A stretch of DNA of 32,000 nucleotides from Thermosulfurimonas dismutans. GTDB lineage: Bacteria; Desulfobacterota; Thermodesulfobacteria; Thermodesulfobacteriales; Thermodesulfobacteriaceae. The position numbers and the translations under genes were made by a program. Location of the stretch: the NCBI RefSeq assembly GCF_001652585.1, contig NZ_LWLG01000017.1:13397-45396 (forward strand), in the 5' to 3' direction. Shown piece after piece: positions 3,856-31,238 of the stretch. The number at the start of each line of letters is the position of its first letter. Position 1 is the first letter of the stretch. The notes below the pieces were generated by a model, which did no database searches, was not told the origin of the DNA, and saw only the letters and a list, made by a program, of their open reading frames with translations.

Positions 3856-3894
3856 GGCTTGCAGATAATATCTTTGCTGGCAAAAAGGATCAAA

Positions 3895-7196: not shown

Positions 7197-7218
7197 TAAC
7201 CAAGGCAATTTAGTTTCC

Positions 7219-7247: not shown

Positions 7248-7254
7248 TTCGTGC

Positions 7255-7273: not shown

Positions 7274-7291
7274 ATACTAAGGAGGTCGGAG

Positions 7292-9220: not shown

Positions 9221-9246
9221 ATCCTAATCGGTAAAGGAGGAAAAAC

Positions 9247-10514: not shown

Positions 10515-11005
10515 TTTTGATTTTATTTTTATTTCTAGCTTCGCGAGAAGTCCTTGCTCACGGAGTTGAAGGAGAAATTGAATATCTCCGTGGGGCGGTT
10601 GTTGTTACCGCCTGGTATGACACCGGAGAACCGATGAGTTATGCAAAAGTAGAGGTTTATGCCCCTGATAGTAATATCAAATTTCAATCTGGAAGAACAG
10701 ACCGGAATGGTCGTATCGCTTTCGTACCCGATGTACCCGGAAAGTGGCGAGTAGTGATCTCGGATGAACTCGGACACAAGCTCGATCTTTCCGCAAATAT
10801 AACAAGTATTTCTCCGGAGAAACCGGTAGAAAATACTCAAATCACCGAAGCTAGAAAAAGCACATTATTATCGCGCAAAATAAGTATTATTATAGGACTT
10901 TTGTTAATATTCGGCCTCTTCGGCTGGATAAAGGAAATTAAGCAATTTCGTCAAAAGGTTTACGGCGGAGACGATGAGGTAGGGCCAGGCGTTCGGCCAC
11001 CCTGA
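10490..11005 (+). CDS. Secreted beta-sandwich (carboxypeptidase-regulatory/transthyretin-like) protein with a C-terminal TM anchor
   Basis: A signal peptide ends ...EVLA|HGVEGE, followed by GRTDRNGRIAFVPDVPGKWRVV, a typical CarboxypepD_reg-like strand pattern. The hydrophobic anchor is IIIGLLLIFGLFGW. The last 68 nt overlap the convergent chlI-like gene. Confidence 0.4.
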   Translation: MFRNIWILVLILFLFLASREVLAHGVEGEIEYLRGAVVVTAWYDTGEPMSYAKVEVYAPDSNIKFQSGRTDRNGRIAFVPDVPGKWRVVISDELGHKLDLSANITSISPEKPVENTQITEARKSTLLSRKISIIIGLLLIFGLFGWIKEIKQFRQKVYGGDDEVGPGVRPP

Positions 11006-11924
11006 GATCCTCCTCGGTGACCTCGGTCCTCCCGGAAAAGGCCGCGTGAGCCCTAGCCGCACGGGCCATGGTAAGATCGGCTCGGTGCCCGTCAACCCCC
11101 AGCGTTATGGTCTTTTTGGCGATGGCATAAAGCATCTCCTCTGGAAGCCTTACCTCCGGAAGCCTCTCCTTGGCTTCCACGATACGGGCGACCAAGGCTT
11201 CGGTTTCACTCTGAAATTTTTCTTTGAACCCTTCAGGATCCCGCGCAAATTCCTCCCAGCGCTCCATGATGAGCACCCTGGCCTTTGGGTCTTTTAAGCC
11301 CTCGACCGTCACGCAGAGACCGAAACGATCAAGGAGTTGGGGACGAAGTTCTCCCTCTTCTGGATTCATGGTACCCACCAGGACGAAACGGGCGGCGTGA
11401 GAGAAACTTACCCCTTCCCTTTCCACGTAATTCATCCCCATAGCCGCCACATCGAGGAGGGTATCCACCAAGTGATCCGGTAAAAGATTTACCTCGTCCA
11501 CATAGAGAAAACCCCGGTGGGCGGCGGCCAGAAGGCCGGGCTCAAAGCGTCTCTCTCCCCGGGTTAGGGCCGCTTCGAGGTCAATGCTTCCCACCAGGCG
11601 ATCCTCGGTGGCTGAGAGCGGAAGCTCCACCACCCGCACCTTTCGCCTCGTGCGGGGAAGCCGGCCTTCCTTCTCAAGGCGCTCTTTACAGAAAGGACAG
11701 AGGCTTTCGGGTGAGTCCGGATCGCAGGAAAAAGGACAACCCTCCACTACCTCTATCTCCGGAAGGATGTCCGCTAGGGCCCGTACCACCGTAGATTTAC
11801 CGGTGCCCTTTTCACCCCGAATGAGGACTCCCCCGATTCCGGGGTCAATCACGTTAAGAAGCAGAGCTAACTTCATGTCCTCCTGACCTACGATGGCGGT
11901 AAAAGGAAAAAGGTATCTCTTCAT
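10938..11924 (-). CDS. chlI: Class I chelatase AAA+ ATPase subunit (ChlI/BchI-type)
   Basis: The sequence contains FPFTAIVGQEDMKLALLLNVIDPGIGGVLIRGEKGTGKST (Walker A), FLYVDEVNLL (Walker B) and GTMNPEEGELRPQLLDRF. There is a Cys-rich insert, GCPFSCDPDSPESLCPFC. The start overlaps the upstream stop by ATGA. Confidence 0.9.
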   Translation of the reverse strand: MKRYLFPFTAIVGQEDMKLALLLNVIDPGIGGVLIRGEKGTGKSTVVRALADILPEIEVVEGCPFSCDPDSPESLCPFCKERLEKEGRLPRTRRKVRVVELPLSATEDRLVGSIDLEAALTRGERRFEPGLLAAAHRGFLYVDEVNLLPDHLVDTLLDVAAMGMNYVEREGVSFSHAARFVLVGTMNPEEGELRPQLLDRFGLCVTVEGLKDPKARVLIMERWEEFARDPEGFKEKFQSETEALVARIVEAKERLPEVRLPEEMLYAIAKKTITLGVDGHRADLTMARAARAHAAFSGRTEVTEEDLRVAERLALPHRLRRKPFDEIA

Positions 11925-16700: not shown

Positions 16701-17634
16701 CCGGAAGGGCTACCGACCAGGCGACCTCTGCTGAAAGTCCCTGGGGATCCTCTTCCCACTCGCTCACCGTGCGATAGTAAGCCACTACCGGCTGAAATAC
16801 CGGAACTCCAAGCCGGCGAAGGACCTCCACCCCGGAGGTAGAAACCGAAGGATCCGAAAGGTCCTTCTCCCGGGTACTTCCCAGGAAGAAAAGGATAAGT
16901 TTGATCAGGGCCTCTATTCGGGGAAGCCCATCGGCCAGCAGAAATTTTCTTATCGCCTCCCCCGGACCCTCGCTTCCGAGACTCTCGTCCTTTACGCTAT
17001 AGCTGAACACCGGTACAACCCCAAGCCCCTGAGCCTCAAATTCCTCTATCAAAGCCCTCTCCACCTCCATTTCCCCGTTTACCCAGTTGTGACGAGAGTA
17101 AAGGATCCCTACAAGGGGAGTTTTCGGGGAGGGCCGGTACCACGCGAGGTATTCCCCGGTGTCGGTAAAGACTTTAGGGGCCCGAGGGTGATATATACCG
17201 GCCATAGGAAGGGGCTCGGGGTCCCGATGGGAAACATCGAGGCCCCCGAGCCCGGAGGCTAGATATAGGAGGAGGTTGGCAAAGTTTTCTTCCCCTCCAT
17301 AGATAACATAGCGCAGGGCCTTCTGGACCACCTCCGGAGAGACATTAGAAAGTGTTAAATAAGTGGGATCGTATCCCAGGGATACCAGGGGACGGGTTTT
17401 CCCCAGCTCGGCAAGGCGAGGAAGCATCTCCTCCCAGAAAGAATCCCCGGAGCGGTAAAGGAGGATAATATCCGCCTGGGCAAGCTCGAGAAGGGCCTCC
17501 TCCCTCTTTTCGGGATGGGTCTCGAGGGTGCGGGAAGAGAAAATCCTGACCTCAAGGCCCAGATCCCTGAGTCTTGCAGCGGCTCTTACAAGGACGGGAA
17601 CATAACTAGCCCATAAAATGGCCCCGATTTTCAT
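13777..17634 (-). CDS. cobN: CobN/ChlH-family large chelatase subunit (about 1285 aa)
   Basis: Length and motifs are typical of CobN/Mg-chelatase H (HVGTHGNLEFLPGK, DNPPEG, YGDT..., PRWIEGMKQHGYKGAAEI). The start at 17634 (MKIGAILW) follows a GGAGGTG RBS. The ORF-track start at 17727 would add 31 unlikely residues. Confidence 0.92.
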   Translation of the reverse strand: MKIGAILWASYVPVLVRAAARLRDLGLEVRIFSSRTLETHPEKREEALLELAQADIILLYRSGDSFWEEMLPRLAELGKTRPLVSLGYDPTYLTLSNVSPEVVQKALRYVIYGGEENFANLLLYLASGLGGLDVSHRDPEPLPMAGIYHPRAPKVFTDTGEYLAWYRPSPKTPLVGILYSRHNWVNGEMEVERALIEEFEAQGLGVVPVFSYSVKDESLGSEGPGEAIRKFLLADGLPRIEALIKLILFFLGSTREKDLSDPSVSTSGVEVLRRLGVPVFQPVVAYYRTVSEWEEDPQGLSAEVAWSVALPEFEGVIEPLFIGAMKREEDPLTGAVLERRVPVRERVQRLVKRVKAWIELRRKPPAERRVVFVLHNNPCASVEATVGSGAHLDTLESVARILKRLKLEGYRVEGEPENGKELIDLILKRKAISEFRWTTVEEIVKKGGALAMVPLEEYLPWWEEFPEGVRLRMREAWGDPPGEEKNGVPAAMVHDGKIVVTGLRFGNAVVCVQPKRGCAGPRCDGKVCKILHDPEVPPPHQYVATYRWLERVFGADVIIHVGTHGNLEFLPGKGVGLSAACFPDLSIHERPHLYIYNSDNPPEGTIAKRRSYAVLVDHLQTVLEAGELYEGYLELDRLLEEYEKAAAGSPARAHEILHRLVDLVRKTGLDREVKPSKETEPEEFIRRIHEALTRLRSTQVPKGMHIFGEIPRGEKLAEFIRAVLRYDSGEPSDLRRVMARALGFRLEDLLNDPTKGRLLERVEKLSGKFVRGVLEGEKAREVLVRLCGKEAVERVPMEHLEKLASRIKDLRSRIEASDEMGALLYGISGGYIPPGPSGLITRGRDDILPTGRNFYSLDPERVPTKAAYAVGVKLAEALLEKFRKDEGRLPENVAFYWMCTDIMWSEGEVMSQILYLLGVRPVWLPNGRVKGLEVIPLHELGRPRIDVTVRVSGITRDNFSRCLELVDEAVCLVAELEEPLEMNFVRKHTLERLEKLGGKKDAFRRATFRIFASPPGTYQSGVNLAVYASAWKTEKDLAEVFLYWNGYAYGKGVFGEKAHREFAEGLRTVEATFNNSFTDEYDLFGCCCYFGTHGGLTVAARELSGKKVKAYYGDTRERAAVAVRDLADEIRRVARAKLLNPRWIEGMKQHGYKGAAEISKRIGRLFGWQATTGEVDDWIFDEITRKFVVDKENRDFFMKHNPYALEEIARRLLEAEKRGLWRPEAGLLEKLRDAYLELEGRLEDAIGETEGGFQGGAVDMYSVDEVAEWQARMKDLRKEIGEIWK

Positions 17635-18421
17635 GGTTTTCACCTCCGAGAGGATTTCCCGGGAAGGCTCCAGTGAGGGATACCAAGGGATAGCCACGAA
17701 AATAGAGGATCTCAAGGGGAATCTCATAGAGTTCTTCTAAAAGTTCCTGAGCCCTAGGATGTTTCCGGGGGTTCATCTCCGCAAGTATCCGTCCCTTTTT
17801 GATAAGGACTACCCGATCGGCAAAACCGAAGGCCAGATTTGGGTCGTGAAGGGTGGCTACCACTGTAAGCCCCCTTTCTCCGGCGAGTCTGTGGACGGTG
17901 GTGAGGACTTCGATCTGGTGTTTCAGGTCCAGATTGGCGGTAGGTTCGTCAAGAAGAAAGATCGGAGCCTCCTGAAGTAGGGCCCTCGCGAAAAGCACCA
18001 GCTGGCGCTCACCGCCGGAAAGATCCGTAAGGCGACGGCGGACAAGGGCCTCAAGTCCTAGACTTCGGAGCACTTCCCGGGCCTTGATCTCATCCCTTTT
18101 TCCAGGACGAGAGAGAAATCCGAGATGAGGAGTGCGTCCCAGCAGGACAAATTCTAGCACGGTATAGGGAAAGACCGGATGATAGGACTGGGGAACATAG
18201 GCCAGGAGACGGGCCCTCTCTTTGTAGGTAAGGTGTTTCAGGGGCCGCCCGCAAACGAGAACCTCGCCCCTCGTCGGGGTATAGAGCCCCAGAAGGCATT
18301 TCAACAAAGTAGTTTTCCCGGCTCCATTAGGTCCGAGAAGGACCACAAATTCCCCCTTGTGCAGGGTCAAATTCACTTCCTGAAGAATCTGGGCGAAGGA
18401 GAGGTCACGGACCTCAAGCAT
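17606..18421 (-). CDS. ABC importer ATPase (FepC/BtuD/FecE type)
   Basis: The sequence carries Walker A GPNGAGKTT, the signature LSGGERQ and Walker B IFLLDEPT. It overlaps the permease gene upstream and cobN downstream. Confidence 0.9.
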   Translation of the reverse strand: MLEVRDLSFAQILQEVNLTLHKGEFVVLLGPNGAGKTTLLKCLLGLYTPTRGEVLVCGRPLKHLTYKERARLLAYVPQSYHPVFPYTVLEFVLLGRTPHLGFLSRPGKRDEIKAREVLRSLGLEALVRRRLTDLSGGERQLVLFARALLQEAPIFLLDEPTANLDLKHQIEVLTTVHRLAGERGLTVVATLHDPNLAFGFADRVVLIKKGRILAEMNPRKHPRAQELLEELYEIPLEILYFRGYPLVSLTGAFPGNPLGGENHENRGHFMG

Positions 18422-19448
18422 ACTCCCAGCCCCCGGTCCGTTGTTGTTTGAGGAGATAGATAAAAAAAGGAATACCGGTGAGAGAGGTAATGATGCCTAC
18501 CGGGAGATCAAAGGCGGTAAGCGTACGGGCCAGAGTGTCAGAAACCACCAAGAGGCCTGCTCCGGTACACATGGAAAGGGGAATCAGCCGTCGATGGTCC
18601 GGTCCTACCGAGAGCCGAACCAGGTGGGGCACCATCAATCCCACCCAGCCCACAATACCGGCTGCGGCCACACCGGCCCCCACCACTAGGGCCGCAAGGC
18701 CCATAACGGCAGCCCTTTCCTTCTCCACCGAGACTCCCAGGCTTCTGGCCTCGTCCTCCGGAAGGGAAAGGAGATTTAGCCGGAATCTCAGCAGATATAG
18801 CCCTGCAAGGCCTAGGGCCACGGGTGGAAAGGTTTGCTTGACGACCTCCCAGGTGCTCAAAGCGAAGCTTCCCATCATCCAGGTCACGATTTCGGCCATG
18901 CGGTGCGGATCCACCATGAATTTTATGAGGGAGACCAGGGCCATGAGCCCGGCGGAGACGATAATCCCGGAGAGAATTAGACTTATACGGGAGACCTCTC
19001 CAGATAGCCGGGCTACCCCATAGGTCAGAAAAGCGGCCAGATAAGCGAAAAGAAAGGCCGCCAGCGATACCGGTACCCGCGGCAACCAAGCCACGGCCAC
19101 CGCACACCCCAGCGCTCCCCCGGCGGAAAGACCTAAGAGATAAGGATCTACCAACGGATTACGAAAGACGGCTTGAAGGGCCGCCCCGGAGGAGGCCAGA
19201 GCCGCCCCTACCAGGGCCGCGAGCAGGACCCTAGGGGTTCGGATCTCCCAAAAAATATTTAAAATTCCGGGACTTATTCCGGAATCTCCCTCCCAGAGTT
19301 TTACCCAGAGGACCTTGAGAGCCAAACCGGGTTTAAAACCCGCCGGTCCCAGGGAAAGAGAGAGATAAATCGCCAGGATACTTGCCGTTACAATGAAGGC
19401 CTCCTTCCGCCAAAGGCCTTTTGGGGAAGGGAGGATTTTAGATGGCAT
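18414..19448 (-). CDS. ABC importer permease (FecCD/BtuC family)
   Basis: This 344 aa polytopic membrane protein has a sequence pattern typical of FecCD (PRVLLAALVGAALASSGAALQAVFRNPLVDPYLLGLSAGGALG ... GIPFFIYLL). Confidence 0.88.
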   Translation of the reverse strand: MPSKILPSPKGLWRKEAFIVTASILAIYLSLSLGPAGFKPGLALKVLWVKLWEGDSGISPGILNIFWEIRTPRVLLAALVGAALASSGAALQAVFRNPLVDPYLLGLSAGGALGCAVAVAWLPRVPVSLAAFLFAYLAAFLTYGVARLSGEVSRISLILSGIIVSAGLMALVSLIKFMVDPHRMAEIVTWMMGSFALSTWEVVKQTFPPVALGLAGLYLLRFRLNLLSLPEDEARSLGVSVEKERAAVMGLAALVVGAGVAAAGIVGWVGLMVPHLVRLSVGPDHRRLIPLSMCTGAGLLVVSDTLARTLTAFDLPVGIITSLTGIPFFIYLLKQQRTGGWEYA

Positions 19449-20406
19449 TCCTGTTGAACCTCTCTACTAGGGTCTTGAAAGAAATCCCGCGAAACCTTTC
19501 GGGATAGATCTTCATGGCCACCCACAGGGTTATCAGAGCCACCCTAGGCGACCAGGTGGACCAGGCAGGGGCCTTGTAGACGGCTCCGTGTTTTACGGCC
19601 GCAACCGCGGCCAGCCTCCGGTCCTGGAGGATGTCCTCCGCTCCGTAGGAGGCGTTTCCCCAAATGAAAATGACCTCCGGGTCCCAAAGGACAATCCTTT
19701 CGGGAGAGACCCTGGGATAGGGATGATCTAGGGCCTCGGCACAATTTTTCCCGCCGGCAAGGCGCAAAATGTCCGCCACCACCCCTCTTCCGCCGGCCAC
19801 CTGGCAGTGACAATGGTCCCCCCAGAGCCAGAGGACCCGTTTCTTTTCGTTTTCCCTGAGGTCCGAAAGACGTTTATCGATAAGTGAGAAGACCTCCTCC
19901 ATGGCCCGGTTCACTCGTAGGAGACGTTCCTCTTTGCCAAAGAGTTCGGCCAGAAGCCTCATGGTAGAGCGCAGATCCTTCAGGCTCTCCGGAGAGATGG
20001 CGATAATCGCCGTTTGATTTCTCTGACCGAACTCCTCAAGGACCTTAAGGGTTTCCGGGCGATAGGTCCAGGTAACGATGAGATCCGGGGAAAAGAGGGC
20101 CAGGGCCTCCAGATTCGCCTGGGTAGCCGTTCCCACCGAAGGAATCTCCTTTAGCCTTTCTGCGCCGACTTCTTTAAGGAGATCACTATATCGTTTGGCC
20201 CAGAGGCTAATCCCTACCGTCTGGTCCCAGAGATCGAGATAGGGAATGAGCTCGTAGCCAATGAGGAAAACCGCCCTCCTTACCGGAACCCGCACCTCAA
20301 CCTTGCGACCGGAAGCATCTCTGACCACTAGGGTGCGCGGGGCAGCCAGAGCAACCTCAAGGCCCAACAAAATAATTATGAAAAGAAGCGCGAGCCTCAC
20401 CTTCAT
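19438..20406 (-). CDS. Periplasmic substrate-binding protein (BtuF/FepB class, for cobalamin, haem or siderophore-type ligands)
   Basis: A signal peptide (MKVRLALLFIIILLGLEVALA) is followed by PDLIV and EVIFIW motifs typical of cluster A/class III SBPs. The gene sits in an operon with FecCD/FepC-type partners. Confidence 0.8.
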   Translation of the reverse strand: MKVRLALLFIIILLGLEVALAAPRTLVVRDASGRKVEVRVPVRRAVFLIGYELIPYLDLWDQTVGISLWAKRYSDLLKEVGAERLKEIPSVGTATQANLEALALFSPDLIVTWTYRPETLKVLEEFGQRNQTAIIAISPESLKDLRSTMRLLAELFGKEERLLRVNRAMEEVFSLIDKRLSDLRENEKKRVLWLWGDHCHCQVAGGRGVVADILRLAGGKNCAEALDHPYPRVSPERIVLWDPEVIFIWGNASYGAEDILQDRRLAAVAAVKHGAVYKAPAWSTWSPRVALITLWVAMKIYPERFRGISFKTLVERFNRNAI

Positions 20407-21209
20407 GACAGCATGTCCTTCTCAAGGATACGGCTCTGAATACCTTGGAGGATGTGGACCAACTCCTCCCGGATTTCTCCGGACAGAGGAAGCCTCTCGC
20501 CCCTAAGAGAGGCTGCGGTGAACTCCGGTCTCACCCAGAACCTTCCTAAAACCGGAAGATGCCTCTTCCCGATCTCCTCTTCCACAATGGCCTCGGCCTC
20601 GGGGGTAAGCCGGTTCAAAACCACTCCCATAAAACGAGCTCCGGAGCCGGTCGCAAGGTCCCTGATCCTTTCGGCGAGCATCACCGACTCTAAGGAGGGT
20701 TCAACTACTGCAAGCACCCCATCTACCGCGGTCTCAAGCCCCCTTCCGAAGTGTTCCACCCCGGCCTCGGTATCCACCAGCACGATCTCTCCGGAAGGAG
20801 TTTCAAGCCGCTTCATGAACTCCCTGGCCACTACTCCCATCGGGCAAGCGCAACCCTCTCGGGCCTCAACGACTTTCCCTACCACTACCAGCAGGCAGTT
20901 ACCCCTCTGCCGCCGAAAGTCCTTCGGGATATCCTCAGGAAAGATCCTCTCCTTTTCAAAAAGACTCACCTCCTCTTTTCCTTCCCGGATTTTCCGCCTC
21001 AGCTTTTCTCGGACGGAATCCTTGCCTCCCAGAAGATCCATTAGGGTGCGGGGAGGACTCTCAAAACCGAGCAGCCGGTGAAGCCCGGGATTGGATTCAT
21101 CCGCATCCACTACCAGCACCCCCCGGTTTTGTTCTGCTAAAAACTCGGCCAATAAGGCGGTAAGAGTGCTCTTACCGCTTCCTCCCTTACCACAAATTAC
21201 AATCTTCAT
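20403..21209 (-). CDS. CooC/MinD/ParA-family P-loop ATPase with a CxC metal motif (CooC-like metallochaperone)
   Basis: It has a deviant Walker A (ICGKGGSGKST), a VVDADESNPG motif, and REGCACPMG, a C-x-C like the Ni-binding motif of CooC. Confidence 0.7.
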   Translation of the reverse strand: MKIVICGKGGSGKSTLTALLAEFLAEQNRGVLVVDADESNPGLHRLLGFESPPRTLMDLLGGKDSVREKLRRKIREGKEEVSLFEKERIFPEDIPKDFRRQRGNCLLVVVGKVVEAREGCACPMGVVAREFMKRLETPSGEIVLVDTEAGVEHFGRGLETAVDGVLAVVEPSLESVMLAERIRDLATGSGARFMGVVLNRLTPEAEAIVEEEIGKRHLPVLGRFWVRPEFTAASLRGERLPLSGEIREELVHILQGIQSRILEKDMLS

Positions 21210-21660
21210 AATTACCCCCCTCCTTCCCCGAAATTCGGAAAAGTCTATAGGTTGGAGCCGAAAGTATTTCTTCTATCCAATTTTTAAAAAGAAGAAGGTA
21301 CTCCTCCTTTTCCTGAAGAGTTATGATCTGGCGCAAGATCTTACTCTCAAGGTCCCGTAATTTTTCGGGCGCTCGGACAAAGGCCCTTCTTGTCCGGAGG
21401 AAAAGAAGATTTTCCCCGCGAGCGTTGAGGAGACTGTAAACCTCTTCATCCATATCCTCGGAAAAGGCAGGAAATCCCATCAATTCCAGAGCCCTTGCGG
21501 CACAGCCCCGGTTATAGGCACACACGGAAAAATCCTCTAAGGACCTTTCCAGGATATAGGTCCTGAATACGAGACCCACCCTCCAGCCTATGGCCAGGTA
21601 AGGGCAGAGATGACCGTGTCTATGGACAATGGTTTTGAGTTCAAGATCTAAGAAAAGCAT
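21187..21660 (-). CDS. FmdE/FwdE-domain protein
   Basis: The N-terminal HRHGHLCPYLAIGWRVG matches the HGH-x-CP-x-x-x-x-G-x-R signature of FmdE-family domains. The product is 157 aa. Confidence 0.6.
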   Translation of the reverse strand: MLFLDLELKTIVHRHGHLCPYLAIGWRVGLVFRTYILERSLEDFSVCAYNRGCAARALELMGFPAFSEDMDEEVYSLLNARGENLLFLRTRRAFVRAPEKLRDLESKILRQIITLQEKEEYLLLFKNWIEEILSAPTYRLFRISGKEGGNYEDCNLW

Positions 21661-21678
21661 CCTTTTTTAATCCCTACC

Positions 21679-23871
21679 TCAGTATTCAAACTTCAACTCC
21701 GCAAACCAGGTCCTTCCCGGGGCCTGGTAGTAGTCGTAGTAATCCTCGTCAAAAACATTGTTGACAGAAAAAGAGAGGGTTGCTTTGTGCCAGGTAAGAC
21801 TCACCTTGACATCGGCCACGAAGTATTCCTCCGAAGTCCCGTAAACGCCTTCAGCCTTGTCGGAGTTGTCGTCGTAACGGAAGACCTTACCTACATAATG
21901 GCCAAAGATGGAGAACTTGAGCCCAGGTAGATTTCCGGGGAGGGGGGGGTTAGCCGAGAGCTCGAAATTCCAGATCCAGGGCGGAACGCCAACGAAACGT
22001 TTACCCTCGGATTCGGGTTTGGCCGGATTGTCCGTGATCTTGGTGTCGTTGCGGGTGTAGTTAACCTTAGCGGAAAGCCAGGAAAAGGGTTTGAGTTCAA
22101 GCTCGCCCTCAAATCCCAGGATCTCTCCTTCCCCGGAGTTGGTCCAGATGTATTCCTTGGTATCGGAATAATAGGCCCGGTAGATGAAGTCCTCCATCCA
22201 GGTACGGAAGAGAGAGGCGCTAAGACGCAGGCGCTTTCCGAACCACCACCTCTCTCCCCCTACCTCCACGGTCCAGGAGGTCTCGGGATCAAGATCGGGA
22301 TTTGAGCGGTAGGTGCGCCCGTACCAGCTCCAGGTGCGGTAGAGCTCATAAAGGTTGGGGGGACGGAAGGCCTTGCCGACCGAAAGTCTCAGGTTAGTGG
22401 AACCGTCTGGACGCCAGACCAGGGCCGCCTTCGGGGAGAAGGCCCCGTCGTCCCGATCGTCGTATCCTTCAACGGCCCCAACGTCACCGGCCTTACCGTC
22501 ATAGGTCCACCAGTGGTCATAGCGCAGCCCCAGGTAAAGGGAGAGATCCTCTCTTACGGTCCAGATGTCCTGCACGAAGAGCCCGAGCGCGCGGCTCTTT
22601 CCCCGAGAAAGATAAAGCTTTTCCTCCTCGGAGTCCTCATCCCGATAGAAAACCAGTTTATGACTCTCTACATTCGACCAATCCCTCCGCAGGGTAAGAC
22701 CGGCGGTAAGGAGGTGGCTTTCTCCTAAGGGAAGATTGCCCTTCACATCTAGATAATAGGTTTCACTATCGCTCTCGTTCTTTTCTCCGGAAGCGGTGTA
22801 GTAGTCCCCGCCTCGGTAGGGTTTTGTATAGTATCCGTCCCTCCTCAGAAAGCCAAAGTTGAATTCGGTTTCGAGTTTTCCGAAGACATCCCGATAGTTG
22901 AGGGAGACGATGCTCGTCTGATAGTCCCCGAGACCGGCATAGGAGATGAAGTCATAAGGAGAAACCGAGGCCGCAAGTCCTCCTGGAATACTCACCGTTC
23001 CGGAGAAGGCCGGCTTTCCGGCAGGATCGGTCAGATAGGTGTGAGGATGGCCGTAATCGTAGCGCTGCACCCCGTGCTGGAACCCGAGCCTTACTTCGCC
23101 CTCATCCCTTACATCAATCCCGATCTTCAGGTGATAGTTCCAGCGTTCACCCCGTTGATCTCCCTTGTCTCCCACCACCCAGCGCAATTTTTCTCCGGTG
23201 GGATCGGTGGTGGGGTAGCCCCCAATCAGGGTTCCGGTTCCGGTTTTAGGCGATTTCAATACCGGGACCGTGGGATACCCCTCCGTGCGGTCCTCTTCGT
23301 AGCCGGCGAGAAAGGCCAGACGCCCCACCCGGTCTCCCATGCTTATGCGCCAGCGGCGGGTTACATCCTCCCCCAGTCCGCCCGTGGCCGAAAAGGTAAA
23401 CTTTTCCGGAAGACGGGTAAGGATATTGATGACCCCTCCCATGGCGTTTCCGCCCCAGAGGGAGGAAAAGGGCCCCCGTACCACCTCCACCCTTTCCACT
23501 TCGTCCAGCGAAAGGGTAGCCCAACGGACGCTATTTGAATAGCCGTCGTTTACCGGAATACCGTCAAGCAGAACCAGAGTCCGCCCCTGGCGGGGCAGTC
23601 CCCGGAGCTCCACCGAGGCTATGGTATCCATGAGCCCTTTCCTGCGGTGCACGAAGACCCCGGCCTCGTGTTTGAGGGCCTCGTCCAGGGTCTGAAGATT
23701 CTTTTTTTCCATGTCCTTACGGGTGATCACGCTCACTGCAGCCGGGGCCTCGGAGACTGCCTGCGGCACCCTAGTGGCCGTGACCACCACTTCCGGGACT
23801 TCTTCCTCCTCGGCCCATGCCGAGCCCATGGCAACGAGAATCAAGATCAACAGTCCCAGTCTGGTTAGCAT
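21679..23871 (-). CDS. TonB-dependent outer-membrane receptor (first gene of the 13 kb operon)
   Basis: The start at 23871 (MLTRLGLLILILVAMGSAWA) follows a GGAGGGGGAG RBS. The plug domain reads VVVTATRVPQAVSEAPAAVSVITRKDMEKKNLQTLDEALKHEAGVFV, LDGIPVND and VRGPFSSLWGGNAMGGVINILT. The barrel ends in a terminal ...WFAELKFEY. Confidence 0.9.
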   Translation of the reverse strand: MLTRLGLLILILVAMGSAWAEEEEVPEVVVTATRVPQAVSEAPAAVSVITRKDMEKKNLQTLDEALKHEAGVFVHRRKGLMDTIASVELRGLPRQGRTLVLLDGIPVNDGYSNSVRWATLSLDEVERVEVVRGPFSSLWGGNAMGGVINILTRLPEKFTFSATGGLGEDVTRRWRISMGDRVGRLAFLAGYEEDRTEGYPTVPVLKSPKTGTGTLIGGYPTTDPTGEKLRWVVGDKGDQRGERWNYHLKIGIDVRDEGEVRLGFQHGVQRYDYGHPHTYLTDPAGKPAFSGTVSIPGGLAASVSPYDFISYAGLGDYQTSIVSLNYRDVFGKLETEFNFGFLRRDGYYTKPYRGGDYYTASGEKNESDSETYYLDVKGNLPLGESHLLTAGLTLRRDWSNVESHKLVFYRDEDSEEEKLYLSRGKSRALGLFVQDIWTVREDLSLYLGLRYDHWWTYDGKAGDVGAVEGYDDRDDGAFSPKAALVWRPDGSTNLRLSVGKAFRPPNLYELYRTWSWYGRTYRSNPDLDPETSWTVEVGGERWWFGKRLRLSASLFRTWMEDFIYRAYYSDTKEYIWTNSGEGEILGFEGELELKPFSWLSAKVNYTRNDTKITDNPAKPESEGKRFVGVPPWIWNFELSANPPLPGNLPGLKFSIFGHYVGKVFRYDDNSDKAEGVYGTSEEYFVADVKVSLTWHKATLSFSVNNVFDEDYYDYYQAPGRTWFAELKFEY

Positions 23872-23987
23872 CTCCCCCTCCTTGATTTTTTGTATCACTT
23901 TTTTAAAATTTGTAACACAAAGAGTAACGAGACCAAAAATGGATGTCAAGGGTAAGATAAGTAAACGTAAAGACTTGGAGAGGTCCT

Positions 23988-24617
23988 ATGAGTCTATGGT
24001 GGTTGATAGAGAAAGGCGGGGTTCTGATATGGCCCCTTTTGGGGTGTTCAGTACTCGGGCTTGCGGTCTTTTTTGAAAGACTCGTCCGGCTTTTCCGGGC
24101 GGCCTCGAGGGATCCAGGACTTGTAGAAAGAGTAGCTGAGAAAGTACTTACCGGGGATCTTGAAGGGGCCAGACGGGAGTCCGCCCGAGAAGGAGGAGCC
24201 GTGGGCCGTATGCTCTATGAGGGACTCTCCATGGGGCTTACAGATGTGGAGACCGTGGAAAGGCTTCTTGCCTCGGCGGTGGAAAGAGAACTCGCTGGCC
24301 TTTCCCGGTATTTCGGACTCTTGGCCCTTATAGGAAACCTGGCCCCGCTTCTGGGGCTCCTCGGTACCGTAATCGGCATGATCAAGGCCTTTCAAACCGT
24401 AGAGGCCTTGGGGGAACGGGTCACGCCCTCACACCTTGCCGGAGGTATTTGGGAGGCCATGCTTACTACGGCAGCGGGCCTCACGGTGGCTATCCCGGTA
24501 ATGATAGGACTCTCTTACCTTGAAGGCCGGCTCTCCCGCATAGAAAACGAGATGGAGGAGGCCGCCACCCTTCTATTAAAAGCCCTTAAAGAGAGGAGCC
24601 GTCATGCTTCGCATTAA
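23988..24617 (+). CDS. exbB: MotA/TolQ/ExbB-family proton channel
   Basis: The product has 3 TM helices and the sequence LALIGNLAPLLGLLGTVIGMIKAF...GIWEAMLTTAAGLTVAIP typical of ExbB/TolQ. A GGAGAGG RBS precedes it. Confidence 0.88.
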   Translation: MSLWWLIEKGGVLIWPLLGCSVLGLAVFFERLVRLFRAASRDPGLVERVAEKVLTGDLEGARRESAREGGAVGRMLYEGLSMGLTDVETVERLLASAVERELAGLSRYFGLLALIGNLAPLLGLLGTVIGMIKAFQTVEALGERVTPSHLAGGIWEAMLTTAAGLTVAIPVMIGLSYLEGRLSRIENEMEEAATLLLKALKERSRHASH

Positions 24618-25011
24618 AACTCGCCGAAGACCCACGGTTACCCTTCCACTTACGGCCTTGATTGACATCGTGTTCCTCCTGTTGATTTATTTCCTCCTGA
24701 CCTCAAGCTTTATCAACCGGGAGGGCCTTAAACTGGATCTTCCGAAGGCGGTCTCCGGCAGGGCCATTAAAGCTCCCCTTACCGTTTACGTGGATCAGAA
24801 GGGCGAGATACACTTTCAGGGCCGAAAAATGAACGGGGCAGAGCTGCTGGAAGCCCTTGCCGAGGAACTTTCAAAAACTCCGGAAAAAAAGGTTGAGATT
24901 GAGGCCGATCGGAGGGCCCCGCTTGAGGCTGTGGTTTCCGCCATGGATGCCGCTCGGCTTGCCGGGGCCAAAACTCTCAGCCTGGCTACGGAGAAACCCG
25001 CAGAACCGTGA
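24604..25011 (+). CDS. exbD: ExbD/TolR-family protein
   Basis: This 135 aa product has an N-terminal TM with LTALIDIVFLLLIYFL and a periplasmic domain. It overlaps exbB and tonB. Confidence 0.88.
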   Translation: MLRIKTRRRPTVTLPLTALIDIVFLLLIYFLLTSSFINREGLKLDLPKAVSGRAIKAPLTVYVDQKGEIHFQGRKMNGAELLEALAEELSKTPEKKVEIEADRRAPLEAVVSAMDAARLAGAKTLSLATEKPAEP

Positions 25012-25868
25012 AACTAAACCGCCTCTTAATCCTGACTCTGGCGATCTCTCTGGTCCTTCATCTCTCGTTATTCCTCTGGGTAAACATTCCCCGAATCGGA
25101 AGGGCCGAAAAGGCCTCCCCGGATGGGAAGAAGATCCTCCTCTCCTTCCATTTACCATCCACACCTTCATCCCCCTCACTGGCAACCCAAAACCCCTCTC
25201 AGACCAAAAAACCGAACCCCTCGAAAAAGAGACCACATCCCCCCAGAAAGGCTTCCGAAAAACCTATTCCAAAAAAGACTTCCGCAAGACCTATCCCGAA
25301 AAAAATTGTCAGAAGCCCCACCCCCAAAAAGACCAAAAGGCCACAGTCCAAAACTCGAGACCCCCAAAAATCTTCCAAGAGCCCCCAAGAAGTTCATCAG
25401 GAGAAAGCTCCACCAGGACCTCCGGAGCCCGAGGAGGCCGAAACAAAAACTGAGGCCCAAAGGCTTTCGGGAACTTCCTCTAAGGAGAAAACCCACCTTA
25501 CGAATGACCATCCCGCGCAAGTTCGCGGGGCTCCCTCCCCTTCAACCGGGCCTTCAAGGGCAGAGATAAAGACATCTTATCTTGCCATGATCCTTGCCCG
25601 TATCGAAAAAAAACGGTACTACCCTCGACTAGCCCGGATGCGGAACTACGAGGGCCGGGTGGGACTTCTCCTCGAAATCTCGGCCGAAGGAAAACTCCTT
25701 TCCGTAAAAATAGTAAAGGGCTCCGGGCATCGTATACTCGACCGGGCTGCCCTGAAGATAACCCGCATGGCCGCTCCCTTTCCACCCCCTCCACCAGAAC
25801 TCGGTCCCCCTCCCCTAAAATTAAAGATTTTTTTGAGATTCCATCTCAAAAATGGAACTGTTCCTTAA
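25008..25868 (+). CDS. tonB: TonB energy-transducer
   Basis: A GTG start overlaps the exbD stop. The N-terminal TM is followed by a long Pro/Lys-rich spacer (PKKTSARPIPKKIVRSPTPKKTKRPQSK...). The C-terminal TonB domain reads YPRLARMRNYEGRVGLLLEISAEGKLLSVKIVKGSGHRILDRAALKI. Confidence 0.88.
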   Translation: MKLNRLLILTLAISLVLHLSLFLWVNIPRIGRAEKASPDGKKILLSFHLPSTPSSPSLATQNPSQTKKPNPSKKRPHPPRKASEKPIPKKTSARPIPKKIVRSPTPKKTKRPQSKTRDPQKSSKSPQEVHQEKAPPGPPEPEEAETKTEAQRLSGTSSKEKTHLTNDHPAQVRGAPSPSTGPSRAEIKTSYLAMILARIEKKRYYPRLARMRNYEGRVGLLLEISAEGKLLSVKIVKGSGHRILDRAALKITRMAAPFPPPPPELGPPPLKLKIFLRFHLKNGTVP

Positions 25869-26013: not shown

Positions 26014-26049
26014 TTTTTTGGAGACTAAATTTCAACAAGGAGAGAGAAA

Positions 26050-27657
26050 ATGGGGGGGTGGATTCTTTTGGCTTTATTGCTTATGGTTTCCTCTGTTTGG
26101 AGCGGCCAGATTTCTTCCGGGGAGCGCAGTTATTTCAAACCACCGGCTTCAACCGCTGATCACTCGAAATTCGAAAGCCTAAAAAAGGATTTTAAGACCC
26201 CGGAGGAGGTAACCAAGGCCTGTCTTTCCTGCCACAATAAAGCCGGAGAACAGTTTGGCGGGACTTTGCATTATACCTGGACCTGGAAGGGGAAGGATGG
26301 GCGCCTCCTAGGGAAGTCTTGGGTAATAAATAATTTCTGAGTGGCGGTTACATCCAACTGGTGCAGGTGCACCAGCTGTCACGCAGGTTACGGTTGGAAA
26401 GACAGACATTTCGATTTCGCTCCAGAAAAAATCGATTGTCTGGTTTGTCACGACACCACCGGGACTTACAAAAAGTTCCCCACGGATTGTGGTTATCCTC
26501 CCCTGAAGGATAAGCTCTTTGCAGGCAAGAAACTCTTTAAGGCGGTGAATCTCTCTTATGTAGCCCAGCACGTGGGTCGTACCTCTCGGGAGTCCTGTGG
26601 AAAGTGCCATTTTTATTCCGGCGGTGGCGATGGTGTGAAGCGAGGCGATCTCGACTCCACCCTCAGGGCTCCGAGCCGAGAGCTTGACGTCCACATGGAT
26701 GCCGAAGGGTTAAATTTCACCTGTGCCACCTGTCATACTACTGTGGCCCACGAAATCGATGGTCGGCATTACGATACCCCGGCTCCTGGGGCCCGAAGGT
26801 TCGCCCTCCCAAAGGATGACGGACATCGGGTGCGCTGTGAGTCCTGTCATGGCCGCCGTCCACACAGGGCCGAAAAGAAACTTATCAGTCTGAAACATCT
26901 TAAATTAAACGACCATACGGATCGATTGGCTTGTCAGACTTGCCATATTCCCTTCTATGGCCGCGGCCTTCCTACCAATATCTACTGGGACTGGTCAACC
27001 GCCGGAAGGTTTAAAAATGGAAAACCCATCGTGGAAAAGGGGCCTCTGGGAAGACCTATTTACCACACGAAGAAGGGAACCCTCAAATGGGGCAAAAATC
27101 TAGTGCCAGAATATCATTGGTATAACGGCACCATGCGATATCTCCTGGCTGGAGAGCCTCTGAGACTTAACGCCAAAGGCCAGGTGCTGCTCATCGCCCC
27201 GGCAGGGGAACCAGACGATCCGCAATCCCGCATCTTTCCCTTTAAACCCCATTACGGACGGCAACCCTTTGATCCCGTAAAGAGAACCATGGTTATCCCC
27301 AAACTCTTTGGAAACAAGGGAAGTGGGGCCTTCTGGACGGAATACGATTGGCAGAAAGCCGTAACCGCAGGTATGACCGAAGCCGGACTTCCCTTCAGCG
27401 GAAAAGTGGCTTTTATCGAAACGGTTCACTATATCCCCCTTTCTCACATGATTCCGCCCAAGGAAAAGGCCCTCAAATGTGCGGAATGTCACGTGAGGCA
27501 AGGGGGACGTATGGAAAAGATCACCGGTATCTATATCCCCGGACGGGACAGCTTCCTGTGGGTGGACCGGATTGGGATCTTTATTTGTGTTCTAACTCTG
27601 TTCCTAGTCACGGTTCATGGTCTGTTCCGTATGGTTATGTCCTTAAAAAGAAGATAG
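26050..27657 (+). CDS. Octahaem c-type cytochrome (tetrathionate-reductase/Otr-like family) with one in-frame TGA at 26338-26340; candidate selenoprotein or pseudogene
   Basis: ORFs 26050-26340 and 26341-27657 share one frame and are separated only by TGA. Together they carry a signal peptide, 8 CxxCH motifs (CLSCH, CTSCH, CLVCH, CGKCH, CATCH, CESCH, CQTCH, CAECH) and a C-terminal TM helix. The second piece has no RBS of its own. Confidence 0.75.
26358..26375 (+). other. Candidate bacterial SECIS hairpin
   Basis: CUGGUGC-AGGU-GCACCAG forms a 7 bp perfect stem with an apical loop containing GGU. It starts 17 nt after the UGA. Its core GGUGCAGGUGCACC resembles the E. coli fdhF SECIS upper stem-loop GGUUGCAGGUCUGCACC. 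Confidence 0.5.
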
Positions 27658-27667: not shown

Positions 27668-28267
27668 ATGAAGGAAAAGATTTTCCTCTACCCCAGATTT
27701 GAACGCTTCTGGCATTGGACTCAGGCCTTTCTTATCGTTCTTCTACTCCTTTCGGGCTTTGAAATTCATGGAAGCTTGAGGATATGGGGCTTCGAGAAAG
27801 CCTATTACCTACACGTGTATTGCGCCGCCGGACTACTGATACTCACAGCCTTTTCCATTTTTTGGCATCTTACCACTGGAAGTTGGCGGCATTACTGGCC
27901 GGTAAAGGAAAAAATCCCACAAATTTGCTACTATTATGCCGTGGGAATATTCCGAAGAGAGGCCCACCCCTTTGAAAAGCGGCCAGACCAAAAACTCAAC
28001 CCTCTTCAGCGTATAGTTTATCTTTTTTTAAAAATATTTCTCTATCCTCTTCAGTTTGTCACCGGTGGGATGCTTTTCCTCTATAAATGGTGGCCGAAAC
28101 TCGGAATCAAGGCCACTTTTTCTGGAACGGTATATTGGCATCTTCTAGGAGCCTACGCCTTTCTCCTCTTTTTCATTCTCCACATCTACCTGACCACTAC
28201 TACTCGGCCTTGGTACAATCACATCCGGGCAATGGTCTTGGGTTGGGAAGAAGTCGAAGTCCGGTAG
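27668..28267 (+). CDS. Membrane dihaem cytochrome b (PhsC/FdnI/HyaC-like, PF01292-type)
   Basis: The sequence RFERFWHWTQAFLIVLLLLSGFEIHG is typical of this family. There are 4 TM helices with conserved His candidates (H16, H34, H157/H172 region). It lies 10 nt downstream of the octahaem gene. Confidence 0.75.
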   Translation: MKEKIFLYPRFERFWHWTQAFLIVLLLLSGFEIHGSLRIWGFEKAYYLHVYCAAGLLILTAFSIFWHLTTGSWRHYWPVKEKIPQICYYYAVGIFRREAHPFEKRPDQKLNPLQRIVYLFLKIFLYPLQFVTGGMLFLYKWWPKLGIKATFSGTVYWHLLGAYAFLLFFILHIYLTTTTRPWYNHIRAMVLGWEEVEVR

Positions 28268-28428: not shown

Positions 28429-28479
28429 TTGACATACTTGGAATTTTTGCTATTAGTTATTGCAAATAAAAATCAATAA
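28429..28479 (+). promoter_or_regulatory. Candidate feo promoter with an overlapping AT-rich inverted repeat (possible Fur-type operator)
   Basis: TTGACA (28429-28434), a 16 nt spacer, then TATTAG. This is followed by TTATTG-N11-CAATAA (28457-28479). By eye the match to the E. coli Fur box is only about 11/19. Confidence 0.3.
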
Positions 28480-28498
28480 TATTAAAGGAGGTGGGGAC

Positions 28499-28864
28499 AT
28501 GAAAGGCGGAGCCGTTACTGTTTTAGAACTGAAGCCAGGAGAAAGGGGGGAGGTGTGCGAGATCCTTCCCGGGGGAGGAGAAAAAAGGGGAGGTGGAAAA
28601 GGGCTCGCATATGGACACCGGCACTGTCACAGGCATCGGCATTGTCAGGGCAGAGGGCGCTCTCGCAGAGGTGGCGAAGGCAAGGGATGCGGAGAGAGAT
28701 TGCTTGAGGTCCTTGGGGTTTACCGGGGACAGGTGCTGGAGGTCATGGAAAATCGGGGCTGCGGTCCCGTGGTCTTGAAGGTGGGAGATAGCCGGTTCGT
28801 TCTAGGGCGCGGCCAGGCCGCCCGTATCCTGGTCAACCGAATCGGGGAGGAGGTGAAATCATGA
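28499..28864 (+). CDS. feoA: FeoA-domain protein carrying a ~40 aa Gly/Arg/His/Cys-rich insertion
   Basis: The ATG at 28499 follows AAAGGAGGTGGGG. The FeoA SH3-like pattern is present (LELKPGERGEVCEI ... RLLEVLGVYRGQVLEVMENRGCGPVVLKVGDSRFVLGRGQAARILV). It is interrupted by GGGEKRGGGKGLAYGHRHCHRHRHCQGRGRSRRGGEGKGCG. Confidence 0.7.
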   Translation: MKGGAVTVLELKPGERGEVCEILPGGGEKRGGGKGLAYGHRHCHRHRHCQGRGRSRRGGEGKGCGERLLEVLGVYRGQVLEVMENRGCGPVVLKVGDSRFVLGRGQAARILVNRIGEEVKS

Positions 28865-29091
28865 AACTTTCAGAAGTTAGTCCCGGCATGAAAGTAAAGA
28901 TCATTAGGCTCGGCCAGGGCTTCCCAGCCCTTAGAAAGCGATTGCTCGATATGGGAGTCCTTTCCGGAGAGCCTATTACGGTGGAACGGGTAGCCCCGTT
29001 GGGTGATCCTCTGGAAGTAAAAATTAAGGGCTACCGGCTCTCCCTCCGTAAGGAGGAAGCCGATGAAATCTTGGTGGAGGTGGTCTCATGA
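28861..29091 (+). CDS. feoA: FeoA (canonical, 76 aa)
   Basis: LSEVSPGMKVKIIRLGQGFPALRKRLLDMGVLSGEPITVERVAPLGDPLEVKIKGYRLSLRKEEADEILV is a full FeoA domain. The gene has ATGA overlaps on both sides. Confidence 0.88.
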   Translation: MKLSEVSPGMKVKIIRLGQGFPALRKRLLDMGVLSGEPITVERVAPLGDPLEVKIKGYRLSLRKEEADEILVEVVS

Positions 29092-31238
29092 GCAAAGAAA
29101 TAGTAGTAGCGGTGGCCGGCAATCCCAATACCGGAAAGACCACCTTCGTGAATGCCATCGCAGGCACAAGGCTCAAAGTCGGAAATTGGCCCGGGGTCAC
29201 GGTAGAGAAGAAGGAGGCCCGGCTCGAAGTAGGCGATGTAAAGGTTCGCCTGGTGGACCTCCCCGGCACCTACAGCCTAAGTCCCTTCAGTACTGAAGAG
29301 ATTATAGCCCGTGATTTTCTAGTAAAGGAAAGGCCTGATGTAGTGCTGAATGTGGTAGACGCCACCAATCTGGAAAGGAACCTCTATCTTACCCTCCAGC
29401 TCATCGAAACCGGAAGACCCGTAGTATTAGTACTAAACATGTATGACGAGGCCCTAAAAAGAGGGTTGCGAATAGAGGTCGAAAAACTGGAAAAGCTCCT
29501 CGGAATCCCGGTGGTGCCCACAGTGGCGGTAAAGGGCGAAGGGGTGAGAGAGGCCCTTGAGACCGCGGTGAGGATCGCCGGAAGCGTTGCGAAATTGGAC
29601 GGGCACGTAAGCTACGGGGAGGAGGTAGAAAAAGCGATCTCGGAAGTGGAAGACTGGTTGCTTAAAAAAGGATCGGCTGTTCTCGGCAAATATCCGACCC
29701 GATGGCTGGCTATCAAGCTCCTTGAAGGAGACCAGAAGGTCAGCGAGGAGACGGGTATACGAGAGCTTCCCGATCTTCCGATGGTCAAACATCTCCTCTC
29801 GGCCCACGGAGAACTGGGGGAGGTCTTGGCCGAAGTTCGTTACGGTATAGCCTCTGGCATAGTGAGGGAAAGTGTCCATAAAGAGGATGCACGTCCAGAC
29901 CTTTCGGAGAAACTGGATCGCCTTTTTCTTAACCGCTACCTCGGGCTTCCCGTATTTATGGCTATGATGTGGCTACTCTTCAAACTAGCTTTTGATTTGT
30001 CTTCTCCCTTCGTGGACTGGCTCGATGGCCTCGTTGCCGGGGCTTTTACCGAAACCCTGGCCTGGGGCCTTTATAAACTTTCAGCACCCGAATGGTTCCA
30101 ATCACTGGTGCTGGATGGAATAGTCGCGGGAGTAGGCACAGTAGCGGTTTTTCTACCGGTAATCTTTGCCATGATGTTTCTCATCACCTTTCTTGAGGGA
30201 AGTGGATATCTCGCGCGGGCGGCCTTTGTAATGGATCGAGCCATGCATACCGTGGGGCTTCACGGGAAGAGCTTCATCCCGCTCCTTCTCGGCTTTGGTT
30301 GTAATGTACCCGCGGTTTATGCCACCCGAGTGCTCGAATCTCGGAGAGATCGCGTCCTTACGGCCTTCCTCGCTCCGCTCATGTCCTGTGGAGCAAGGCT
30401 TCCCGTATATGTCCTTTTTGCAGGAGCCTTTTTCGGCTCGCGAGCCGGAACGGTAATCTGGTCCCTTTACATGGTTGGGATAGGCGCGGCCCTCCTGCTG
30501 GGGGCCATCCTGCAAAGGCTTCTCTTCCGGGGAGAGGCCACCTTTTTTGTAATGGAACTGCCTCCCTACCGTCTCCCTAGGGCGAAGTATCTCCTGGTTC
30601 ATACTTGGGAGAAGACCCGTCACTTCGTTGTTAAGGCTGGAACTTACATTCTTGCGATGTCTATAGCGGTCTGGTTCCTATTTCATCTCCCACCAGGAGC
30701 GAAAGGGTTAGAGGAATCCTATTTGGGGCGCCTAAGCAAGGCGGTAGCCCCGGTGTTCAGCCCTCTGGGATTCGGTAACTGGGAAGCAGCTGCTTCTCTG
30801 GTTACGGGTTTTCTAGCTAAAGAAGTGGTGGTGAGCACTATGGGTGAAATATACGGCTTGAGCTCAGCGGAAGAAGACGAAATCCCTCAGGAATTCCCAA
30901 GCCATAGTTGGGGCGAGGTCTTCAAGGGATTGCCACTGGCCTTCGTAGAGGCCGGCCGTAATCTTTTGGCCGGGCTTTATCCGGTAAGCCTTGAACCGGA
31001 CGAAGCTGAGGCTTCGCTGCTTTCAAGAATACGAGAAGTCTTCACCCCCCTTTCGGCTTACGCTTTCATGGTTTTTGTCCTGTTATATGTGCCGTGCATG
31101 GTAGTTTTGGCGGCCTTTTATATGGAATTTCGTAGTCTCCGCCTGACAGGGCTTATGTTGATCTCACATTTTGCCCTGGCCTATGGTCTTACTTATTTCC
31201 TCTACCAGGCCGGGAAACTTCTCGGATATGGGGGTTAA
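29088..31238 (+). CDS. feoB: Ferrous iron transporter FeoB (G-domain plus permease)
   Basis: The G-domain motifs are GNPNTGKTT (G1), DLPGTYSL (G3) and NMYD (G4). The polytopic C-terminal domain has gate motifs. The product is 716 aa. Confidence 0.93.
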   Translation: MSKEIVVAVAGNPNTGKTTFVNAIAGTRLKVGNWPGVTVEKKEARLEVGDVKVRLVDLPGTYSLSPFSTEEIIARDFLVKERPDVVLNVVDATNLERNLYLTLQLIETGRPVVLVLNMYDEALKRGLRIEVEKLEKLLGIPVVPTVAVKGEGVREALETAVRIAGSVAKLDGHVSYGEEVEKAISEVEDWLLKKGSAVLGKYPTRWLAIKLLEGDQKVSEETGIRELPDLPMVKHLLSAHGELGEVLAEVRYGIASGIVRESVHKEDARPDLSEKLDRLFLNRYLGLPVFMAMMWLLFKLAFDLSSPFVDWLDGLVAGAFTETLAWGLYKLSAPEWFQSLVLDGIVAGVGTVAVFLPVIFAMMFLITFLEGSGYLARAAFVMDRAMHTVGLHGKSFIPLLLGFGCNVPAVYATRVLESRRDRVLTAFLAPLMSCGARLPVYVLFAGAFFGSRAGTVIWSLYMVGIGAALLLGAILQRLLFRGEATFFVMELPPYRLPRAKYLLVHTWEKTRHFVVKAGTYILAMSIAVWFLFHLPPGAKGLEESYLGRLSKAVAPVFSPLGFGNWEAAASLVTGFLAKEVVVSTMGEIYGLSSAEEDEIPQEFPSHSWGEVFKGLPLAFVEAGRNLLAGLYPVSLEPDEAEASLLSRIREVFTPLSAYAFMVFVLLYVPCMVVLAAFYMEFRSLRLTGLMLISHFALAYGLTYFLYQAGKLLGYGG

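Follow-up and report, generated by a model that had tools for sequence, protein, structure and literature searches.

An in-frame UGA at the Cys64 position of an Otr-family octahaem cytochrome c gene in Thermosulfurimonas dismutans is very probably a selenocysteine codon

The stretch of Thermosulfurimonas dismutans DNA analysed here (32,000 nucleotides of contig NZ_LWLG01000017.1, positions 13,397 to 45,396; hereafter the window) was found to carry a gene of the Otr family of octahaem c-type cytochromes whose reading frame is interrupted by a TGA triplet. The frame runs from 26050 to 27657 on the plus strand, as do all the features of the gene given below, and the TGA at 26338-26340 is its sole internal stop. 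When this triplet is read as selenocysteine (Sec) the gene is complete, with 535 codons, Sec at codon 97 and a TAG stop. The upstream piece of 96 codons is preceded by a Shine-Dalgarno sequence (AGGAG, 26038-26042, read from the sequence 7 nt 5' of the ATG) and possesses a hydrophobic, signal-peptide-like N-terminus (MGGWILLALLLMVSSVWS; 26050-26103, the boundary being approximate and inferred from the sequence without a predictor) as well as the first CxxCH motif, that of haem 1 (CLSCH, 26221-26235). The downstream piece of 438 codons starts at a GTG (26341), ahead of which no comparable Shine-Dalgarno sequence was seen, and holds seven CxxCH motifs, beginning with that of haem 2 (CTSCH, 26368-26382). 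In the joined translation the eight motifs read CLSCH, CTSCH, CLVCH, CGKCH, CATCH, CESCH, CQTCH, and CAECH. The product also has a C-terminal hydrophobic helix (approximately 27559-27627, as read from the sequence) which is not part of the soluble Shewanella Otr chain. An earlier note on this DNA had described an otherwise open octahaem cytochrome frame split by one TGA, with the signal peptide and haem 1 on one side and haems 2-8, lacking a ribosome-binding site, on the other, and the present reading bears out that layout along with everything else the note had stated about the sequence.

For the profile match, Cys was written at the TGA of the joined 535-residue product. The match to TIGR04315 (NCBIfam, tetrathionate reductase family octahaem c-type cytochrome) scored 572.2 bits (cutoff 375), spans the TGA and covers profile positions 1-440 of 440. 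The joined translation was also aligned with the Shewanella Otr structure (PDB 1SP3) at E = 8e-108, the alignment stopping at query residue 488. Here the TGA is matched with C64, the Cys of INNFC, and a Lys 8 residues upstream with K56 (1sp3_A chain index), in line with the motif and spacing given in the earlier note. Lys89 (codon at 26314-26316) is therefore the residue aligned with Lys56, and its GK dipeptide is kept in every homologue shown. A conserved segment, GK(x5)NN[FY]-C/U-(x9)-CxxCH, is common to the window gene and Otr, with Sec97 lying between Lys89 and the haem-2 attachment motif, which begins 10 residues downstream. Lys56 is said to have been assigned by Mowat et al. in 2004 as the ligand of haem 2, reportedly the catalytic haem of Shewanella Otr, and Lys89 would by analogy be expected to ligate iron in the T. 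dismutans protein. A review places the penta-coordinate haem of Otr in the N-terminal module (PMC9250108), and no detail on Cys64 was found in the literature searched that mentions Otr.

The residue replaced by the TGA is invariant among known proteins of this kind, being Cys in all 103 full-length sequences among the best 120 database homologues. At the nucleotide level, 80 reference-genome loci were compared and the codon in this column was TGA in 10 of them and TGC or TGT in 70, the N-terminal frame being open 5' of the TGA. Metagenomes were scanned with the pattern NN[FY]-TGA-(27 nt)-CxxCH-xG[YF], which constrains a single position of the hairpin described below (the first Cys codon, TGY, of CxxCH, in the 3' arm). 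At least 120 metagenomic contigs were found to have TGA at the column, and both flanking frames are open in all 120. This brings the number of loci with TGA at the Cys64 column to at least 131, the window included. On a rough neighbour-joining tree, Fitch parsimony requires at least eight switches between Sec and Cys, and Sec forms, as judged from the TGA in this column, are common and arose or reverted several times. Sec/Cys homologue pairs of the sort anticipated in the earlier note exist in many clades, and one independent pair (L191 with TGA, L078 with Cys) belongs to a distant subfamily with a CAQCH haem-2 motif. A reassignment of the UGA code was ruled out, as TGA is the stop of 10 of the 26 other genes in the window.

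In the databases the gene is represented by its downstream part only. By exact-sequence look-up, the RefSeq entry WP_208595697.1 of T. dismutans is identical to the downstream 438 aa, the gene being annotated there as a truncated protein, and the 96-aa N-terminal piece was not found in the protein collection. Exact matches were also obtained for the neighbouring cytochrome b (OAQ20063.1) and FeoB (OAQ20066.1). The 17 closest of the best 120 database homologues (55-88% identity) are all called as proteins of ~430 aa that start directly after the Sec column (P0001-P0013, P0019, P0020, P0045, and P0059); these mis-called Sec-type entries include the RefSeq proteins of T. dismutans and T. autotrophicus. 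The T. dismutans genome paper lists Otr as TDIS_1882 alongside the cytochrome b TDIS_1883, and the follow-up cites Otr as TDIS_1881 (PMC4911364, PMC5276818); TDIS_1881 and TDIS_1882 are probably two fragments of one gene. Neither selenocysteine nor selenium is mentioned in these two papers.

Separate calling of a 438-aa product by gene callers and by RefSeq, and the missing N-terminal piece, are what would be expected of a pseudogene or of a gene that a nonsense mutation has broken in two and that makes no full-length protein. This is nevertheless highly improbable, as the same TGA stands in the same column of more than 130 loci from many lineages, with intact flanking frames and conservation at the protein level, and is followed by a conserved hairpin. 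Moreover, the downstream piece has neither a ribosome-binding site nor a signal peptide, and its haems could not be loaded in the cytoplasm. An error of sequencing or assembly is even harder to credit. TGA is one base away from a Cys codon (TGC or TGT); however, the sequence matches the deposited T. dismutans proteins exactly, and the TGA recurs in isolates, metagenome-assembled genomes and metagenomes together with a hairpin that Cys forms do not have. Its presence in more than 130 independent assemblies therefore means that it is not a read error.

The hairpin in question lies at 26358-26375 and begins 17 nt 3' of the TGA. It is of the selenocysteine insertion sequence (SECIS) type, having 7 bp formed by CUGGUGC (26358-26364) and GCACCAG (26369-26375) around an AGGU loop (26365-26368), and it was confirmed, as the earlier note had drawn it, within the minimum-free-energy fold. 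It is embedded in the protein-coding sequence. The 5' arm is made by the codons for N-W-C (AA-C UGG UGC), its last three bases being the codon of an additional Cys105 (26362-26364, in the context NWCRC), and the 3' arm is made by the first codons of the haem-2 motif CTSCH (U-GC ACC AG-C), the whole element occupying the codons N-W-C-R-C-T-S.

Of the 115 distinct TGA forms among the matches listed, to which the counts of hairpin types given below also refer, 111 have a hairpin that begins 13-17 nt after the codon, spans 6 bp or more and bears G in the first two positions of its loop. The same was seen in 2 of 67 distinct Cys forms. The segment folds with a mean energy of -11.6 kcal/mol in Sec forms vs -5.4 kcal/mol in Cys forms (Mann-Whitney p = 2.6e-23). 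Two main types were distinguished. Type A, with 73 distinct sequences, has the peptide context SNEARC and the hairpin GCAACGA-GGC-UCGUUGC, and type B, with 29 distinct sequences including the window, has the context SNWCRC and the hairpin CUGGUGC-AGGU-GCACCAG. The TGA gene of the distant subfamily, L191, has a third design (GGGCA-UGUG-UGCCC). In the fold of the window a lower stem was also seen (GUGGCGG/CUGUCAC, 26341-26347/26376-26382), but it is not conserved among type-B sequences and was set aside.

Synonymous-codon entropy is zero or near zero exactly in the codons that form the hairpin of each type; in sequences of the other type and in the Cys forms these residues are encoded variably. 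In type B the codons N-W-C-R show an entropy of 0 and C-T-S one of 0.22-0.48, the few substitutions in the latter either keeping the pairing or sitting outside the stem; in type A and in Cys forms the codons for T and S are free to vary. The Ser of CTSCH, for example, is encoded by six codons in type A (H = 2.39) and by AGC in type B, with AGT in 3 of 29 sequences. For Arg, type A uses CGT and type B uses AGG without exception, and NEPRC Cys genes use five codons. Pairing was examined in a set of 34 distinct type-B-like hairpin regions of 36 nt each (the 29 SNWCRC sequences and five of variant context). The hairpin is identical or wobble/compensated in all 34, with 97.9% of cells paired; the changes that leave pairing intact comprise four from G-C to G-U, and two compensatory pairs were found, C-G to U-A in L163 and G-C to A-U in L109.

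Three Cys genes that have the NWCRC peptide (L202-L204) keep the stem and have CGC, AGA, and CGG as the loop Arg codon, against AGG in 29/29 Sec forms. The altered loops are what would be expected if the loop G mattered only together with UGA, a weak indication drawn from three genes. These genes and L026 of Chlorobium sp. N1 are Cys genes in contexts otherwise typical of Sec (NWCRC and GNEARC, respectively), and all four may be recent Sec-to-Cys conversions.

The hairpin types are mirrored in the protein. In the protein-homologue set most Cys forms read NEPRC at the loop and Sec forms read NEARC or NWCRC, while among the 67 distinct genomic Cys loci SNYASC (27/67) is more frequent than SNEPRC (13/67). 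The extra Cys at position 105 is found neither in type-A Sec forms nor in most Cys forms. The simplest reading is that the need for a SECIS element dictated the residues of the loop, including Cys105 of type B, which may simply follow from the stem sequence or may serve as a partner thiol; type A does without it, and it is therefore not generally required. Two SECIS designs that overlap the haem-2 attachment codons are documented by these alignments.

Evidence for the decoding machinery comes from a relative. Metagenomic contig L095 was found by ARAGORN to encode a tRNA-SeC with anticodon TCA (6945-7040, minus strand), located ~5 kb downstream of a type-B pair of Sec-Otr and cytochrome b. The Otr product of this contig is ~77-80% identical to that of the window (estimated via P0019 and L001, the latter having an identical local peptide). 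The tRNA gene lies in a cluster at 6647-7278 with tRNA-Met and tRNA-Ser(GGA). For T. dismutans itself, TDIS_RS01570 has been listed among the Sec-containing representatives of MccSep (PMC13510729), and tRNASec has been reported as present in T. indicus (PMC12439589).

It is known that UGA is the leakiest of the stops and that downstream structures can stimulate read-through, which leaves some room for a reading without selenium. The UGA might be decoded by a near-cognate tRNA as Trp or Cys, or it might serve regulated termination, the hairpin slowing the ribosomes and the main product being a 96-residue monohaem fragment. We consider either version very unlikely. An invariant Cys in the column of the TGA is the classic Sec/Cys pattern, and the loop G is conserved in TGA forms only; in addition, a tRNA-Sec gene is linked to the gene in L095, and the family is annotated as a selenoprotein in GenBank.

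Several observations weigh against Sec at this position. The fold of the single sequence is not significant (z = -0.8), with 43 of 200 shuffles folding equally well. No Rfam match was found, either for the whole window at the gathering threshold or for 26250-26480 at E <= 10, although this carries little weight, bacterial SECIS elements being highly diverse. The hairpin also lacks the bulged U of the SECIS element of Escherichia coli fdhF. The p-value given above for the folding energies overstates independence, the Sec and Cys sets being drawn from different collections and phylogenetically non-independent. Finally, no selA, selB, or selD was present among the 28 open reading frames (ORFs) scanned in the 32-kb window, and the only tRNA gene in it is tRNA-Lys, with no tRNA-Sec.

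Because the fold of the single sequence is not significant, weight was placed on the comparison across loci. The SECIS element proposed in the earlier note was upheld by that comparison, in the restriction of the hairpin to TGA forms and in selection at the nucleotide level, and was not supported by the single fold or by Rfam. The candidate Sec itself is supported by the Cys column, the Sec/Cys pairs, the TGA-specific hairpin, the recurrence of the TGA and the linked tRNA-Sec of L095. In combination, the points on column, recurrence, hairpin, codons, and machinery are hardly compatible with a pseudogene, an assembly error or a hairpin that arose by chance. On this comparative sequence evidence the Otr gene of T. 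dismutans is very probably (at a rough probability of 0.9) one gene, with a Sec codon and a SECIS element at an invariant Cys.

It may be proposed, from what is understood of the bacterial Sec pathway, that the hairpin found 17 nt beyond UGA97 functions as a bacterial SECIS element. SelB carrying Sec-tRNASec would recognize the G-containing apical loop and insert Sec at the UGA in place of release factor 2. The product would be a 535-residue precursor, which would be exported and loaded with eight haems. The C-terminal helix and the adjacent cytochrome b would keep the enzyme at the membrane, and electrons from quinol would pass through the cytochrome b into the haem chain. By analogy with MccSep and TsdA, the selenolate could act as the nucleophile on an S-S bond of tetrathionate or polysulfide, and the Se-S adduct could then be reduced by haem 2. 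The substrate part of this proposal is weakened by the promiscuity of Shewanella Otr in vitro.

A different role is to be weighed, in which Sec is inserted but the enzyme reduces nitrite or hydroxylamine to ammonium during sulfur-dependent nitrate ammonification and does not cleave S-S bonds. T. dismutans has no NrfA and Otr has been proposed as its nitrite reductase; the same papers cite the in vitro reduction of both nitrite and hydroxylamine by the Shewanella enzyme (PMC4911364, PMC5276818). On the other hand, a haem can reduce nitrite without the help of a thiol or selenol nucleophile, and the Sec of MccSep serves polysulfide cleavage in an enzyme without nitrite activity (PMC13510729). 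This role is possible but we hold it to be doubtful. A wider proposal can be advanced only tentatively. Sec-Otr together with its cytochrome b might represent a second, independently evolved haem-selenium class beside MccSep, widespread in sulfur-cycling anaerobes (at least 120 metagenomic contigs), and might be a key missing catalyst of T. dismutans for the disproportionation of sulfur compounds or for sulfur-dependent nitrate ammonification. Under the same proposal, the requirement for a SECIS element no further than 20-40 nt from the UGA would have changed NEPRC to NEARC or NWCRC, so that RNA structure would have shaped the active-site loop and may have added a partner Cys.

The Otr gene is followed on the plus strand by a gene for a cytochrome b membrane subunit of the PhsC/Ni_hydr_CYTB type (27668-28267, TDIS_1883), whose match to NF011582 (91.6 bits) does not reach the cutoff of 204. 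In Sec and Cys relatives alike a PF01292 gene comes after Otr, the pair being conserved, and the cytochrome b is the probable quinol-oxidizing partner of Otr. The pair is surrounded by a metal/corrinoid-uptake island (7238-25868 and 28861-31238) with two TonB-dependent receptors, CobN and a ChlD/ChlI-type chelatase, a FecCD/BtuC-type ABC importer, ExbB-ExbD-TonB, and FeoAB. A functional link of the upstream TonB/ExbBD genes or the downstream FeoAB genes to Otr was considered and rejected, as these neighbours are not kept around the orthologues of T. autotrophicus (L201) or L095. Between the cytochrome b gene and feoA an ORF of 134 aa (28460-28864) has no NCBIfam match.

The opposite end of the window was found to possess a chromosomal integron (1-4962). 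Its integrase is encoded at 3859-4962 on the plus strand (TIGR02249, 310.7 bits, cutoff 265), and four ORFs on the minus strand, divergent from it, have no family match (117-992, 1064-1801, 2060-2707, and 2772-3614). Repeats of ~57 nt with the form CTAAC...GTTA, which are attC-like, lie between the integron ORFs at 63-119, 1011-1066, 1828-1883, and 2746-2774. An ORF for an IS5-family transposase (6240-7196) adjoins tRNA-Lys(UUU) (6091-6164).

Comparison with known systems begins with the family itself. The earlier note had regarded Sec in an octahaem reductase as belonging to no selenoprotein family known to it, a view that did not hold, TIGR04315 having been catalogued already as a selenoprotein family on the basis of GenBank annotation in a 2026 review (PMC13188914). 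In that catalogue the Sec motif is given as "-" and the reference as "GA", without characterization, and no further analysis of Sec-type TIGR04315 was found in the literature searched. The Sec-Otr of T. dismutans is a mis-annotated member of this catalogued and unstudied family and not a new kind of selenoprotein. It shares family and a UGA-encoded Sec with the GenBank examples (such as WP_331457571.1; PMC13188914), the likeness resting on their annotation; unlike them, in T. dismutans and close relatives the gene is still annotated as coding for a truncated protein. What is added here is the position of Sec (the Cys64 column, blank in the published catalogue), the abundance and polyphyly of Sec forms, and the correction for T. 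dismutans. The gene was used in two metabolic models of this organism, and its annotation would now be that of one exported selenoprotein and not of a truncated cytochrome; the same error affects WP_208595697.1 and 16 other close database entries.

Shewanella oneidensis Otr (1SP3) belongs to the same TIGR04315 family and likewise has eight CxxCH motifs, with Lys56 as the aligned counterpart of Lys89. It differs in having Cys64 and NEPRC and in being soluble, whereas the T. dismutans protein is predicted to have Sec, NWCRC with the extra Cys, and a membrane helix at its C-terminus, a cytochrome b being encoded next to it. With regard to the RNA, the fdhF sequence quoted in the earlier note is indeed present in E. 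coli fdhF, and its SECIS core (GGUUGC-AGGUCU-GCACC) resembles the GGUGC-AGGU-GCACC of the window. Both have G and U in the apical loop and both lie in coding sequence shortly after the UGA, but the loop of the window hairpin has 4 nt vs 6 nt (or 4+2) in fdhF, and the spacer 17 nt vs 11 nt.

A functional parallel may be seen in MccSep (ExtKL, GSU2937-2936) of Geobacter sulfurreducens, a pentahaem selenoprotein polysulfide reductase (PMC13510729) and the only characterized multihaem selenoenzyme. Shared features are its nature as a periplasmic multihaem cytochrome c, the SECIS-like hairpin that follows the UGA, and the interspersion of Sec and Cys forms; MccSep also occurs in similar organisms, T. 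dismutans included. A feature of MccSep itself is one catalytic Sec beside the active-site haem; polysulfide is the target of this Sec, and the adduct so formed is reduced through the haem (PMC13510729). MccSep differs in having five haems, a His/Cys-ligated active haem, a tetrameric state, and no tetrathionate activity, and it is unrelated to TIGR04315 in sequence. The dihaem thiosulfate dehydrogenase/tetrathionate reductase TsdA is similar in the concept of its chemistry, with a Cys at the active haem in the interconversion of tetrathionate and thiosulfate (PMC5146829), but it has an unrelated fold and its Cys is itself the haem ligand. A second multihaem cytochrome family that probably has Sec near a putative catalytic haem would be a target for experiments following the 2026 study of MccSep, and bears on the respiration and disproportionation of sulfur compounds and on why selenium matters to the organisms that carry them out.

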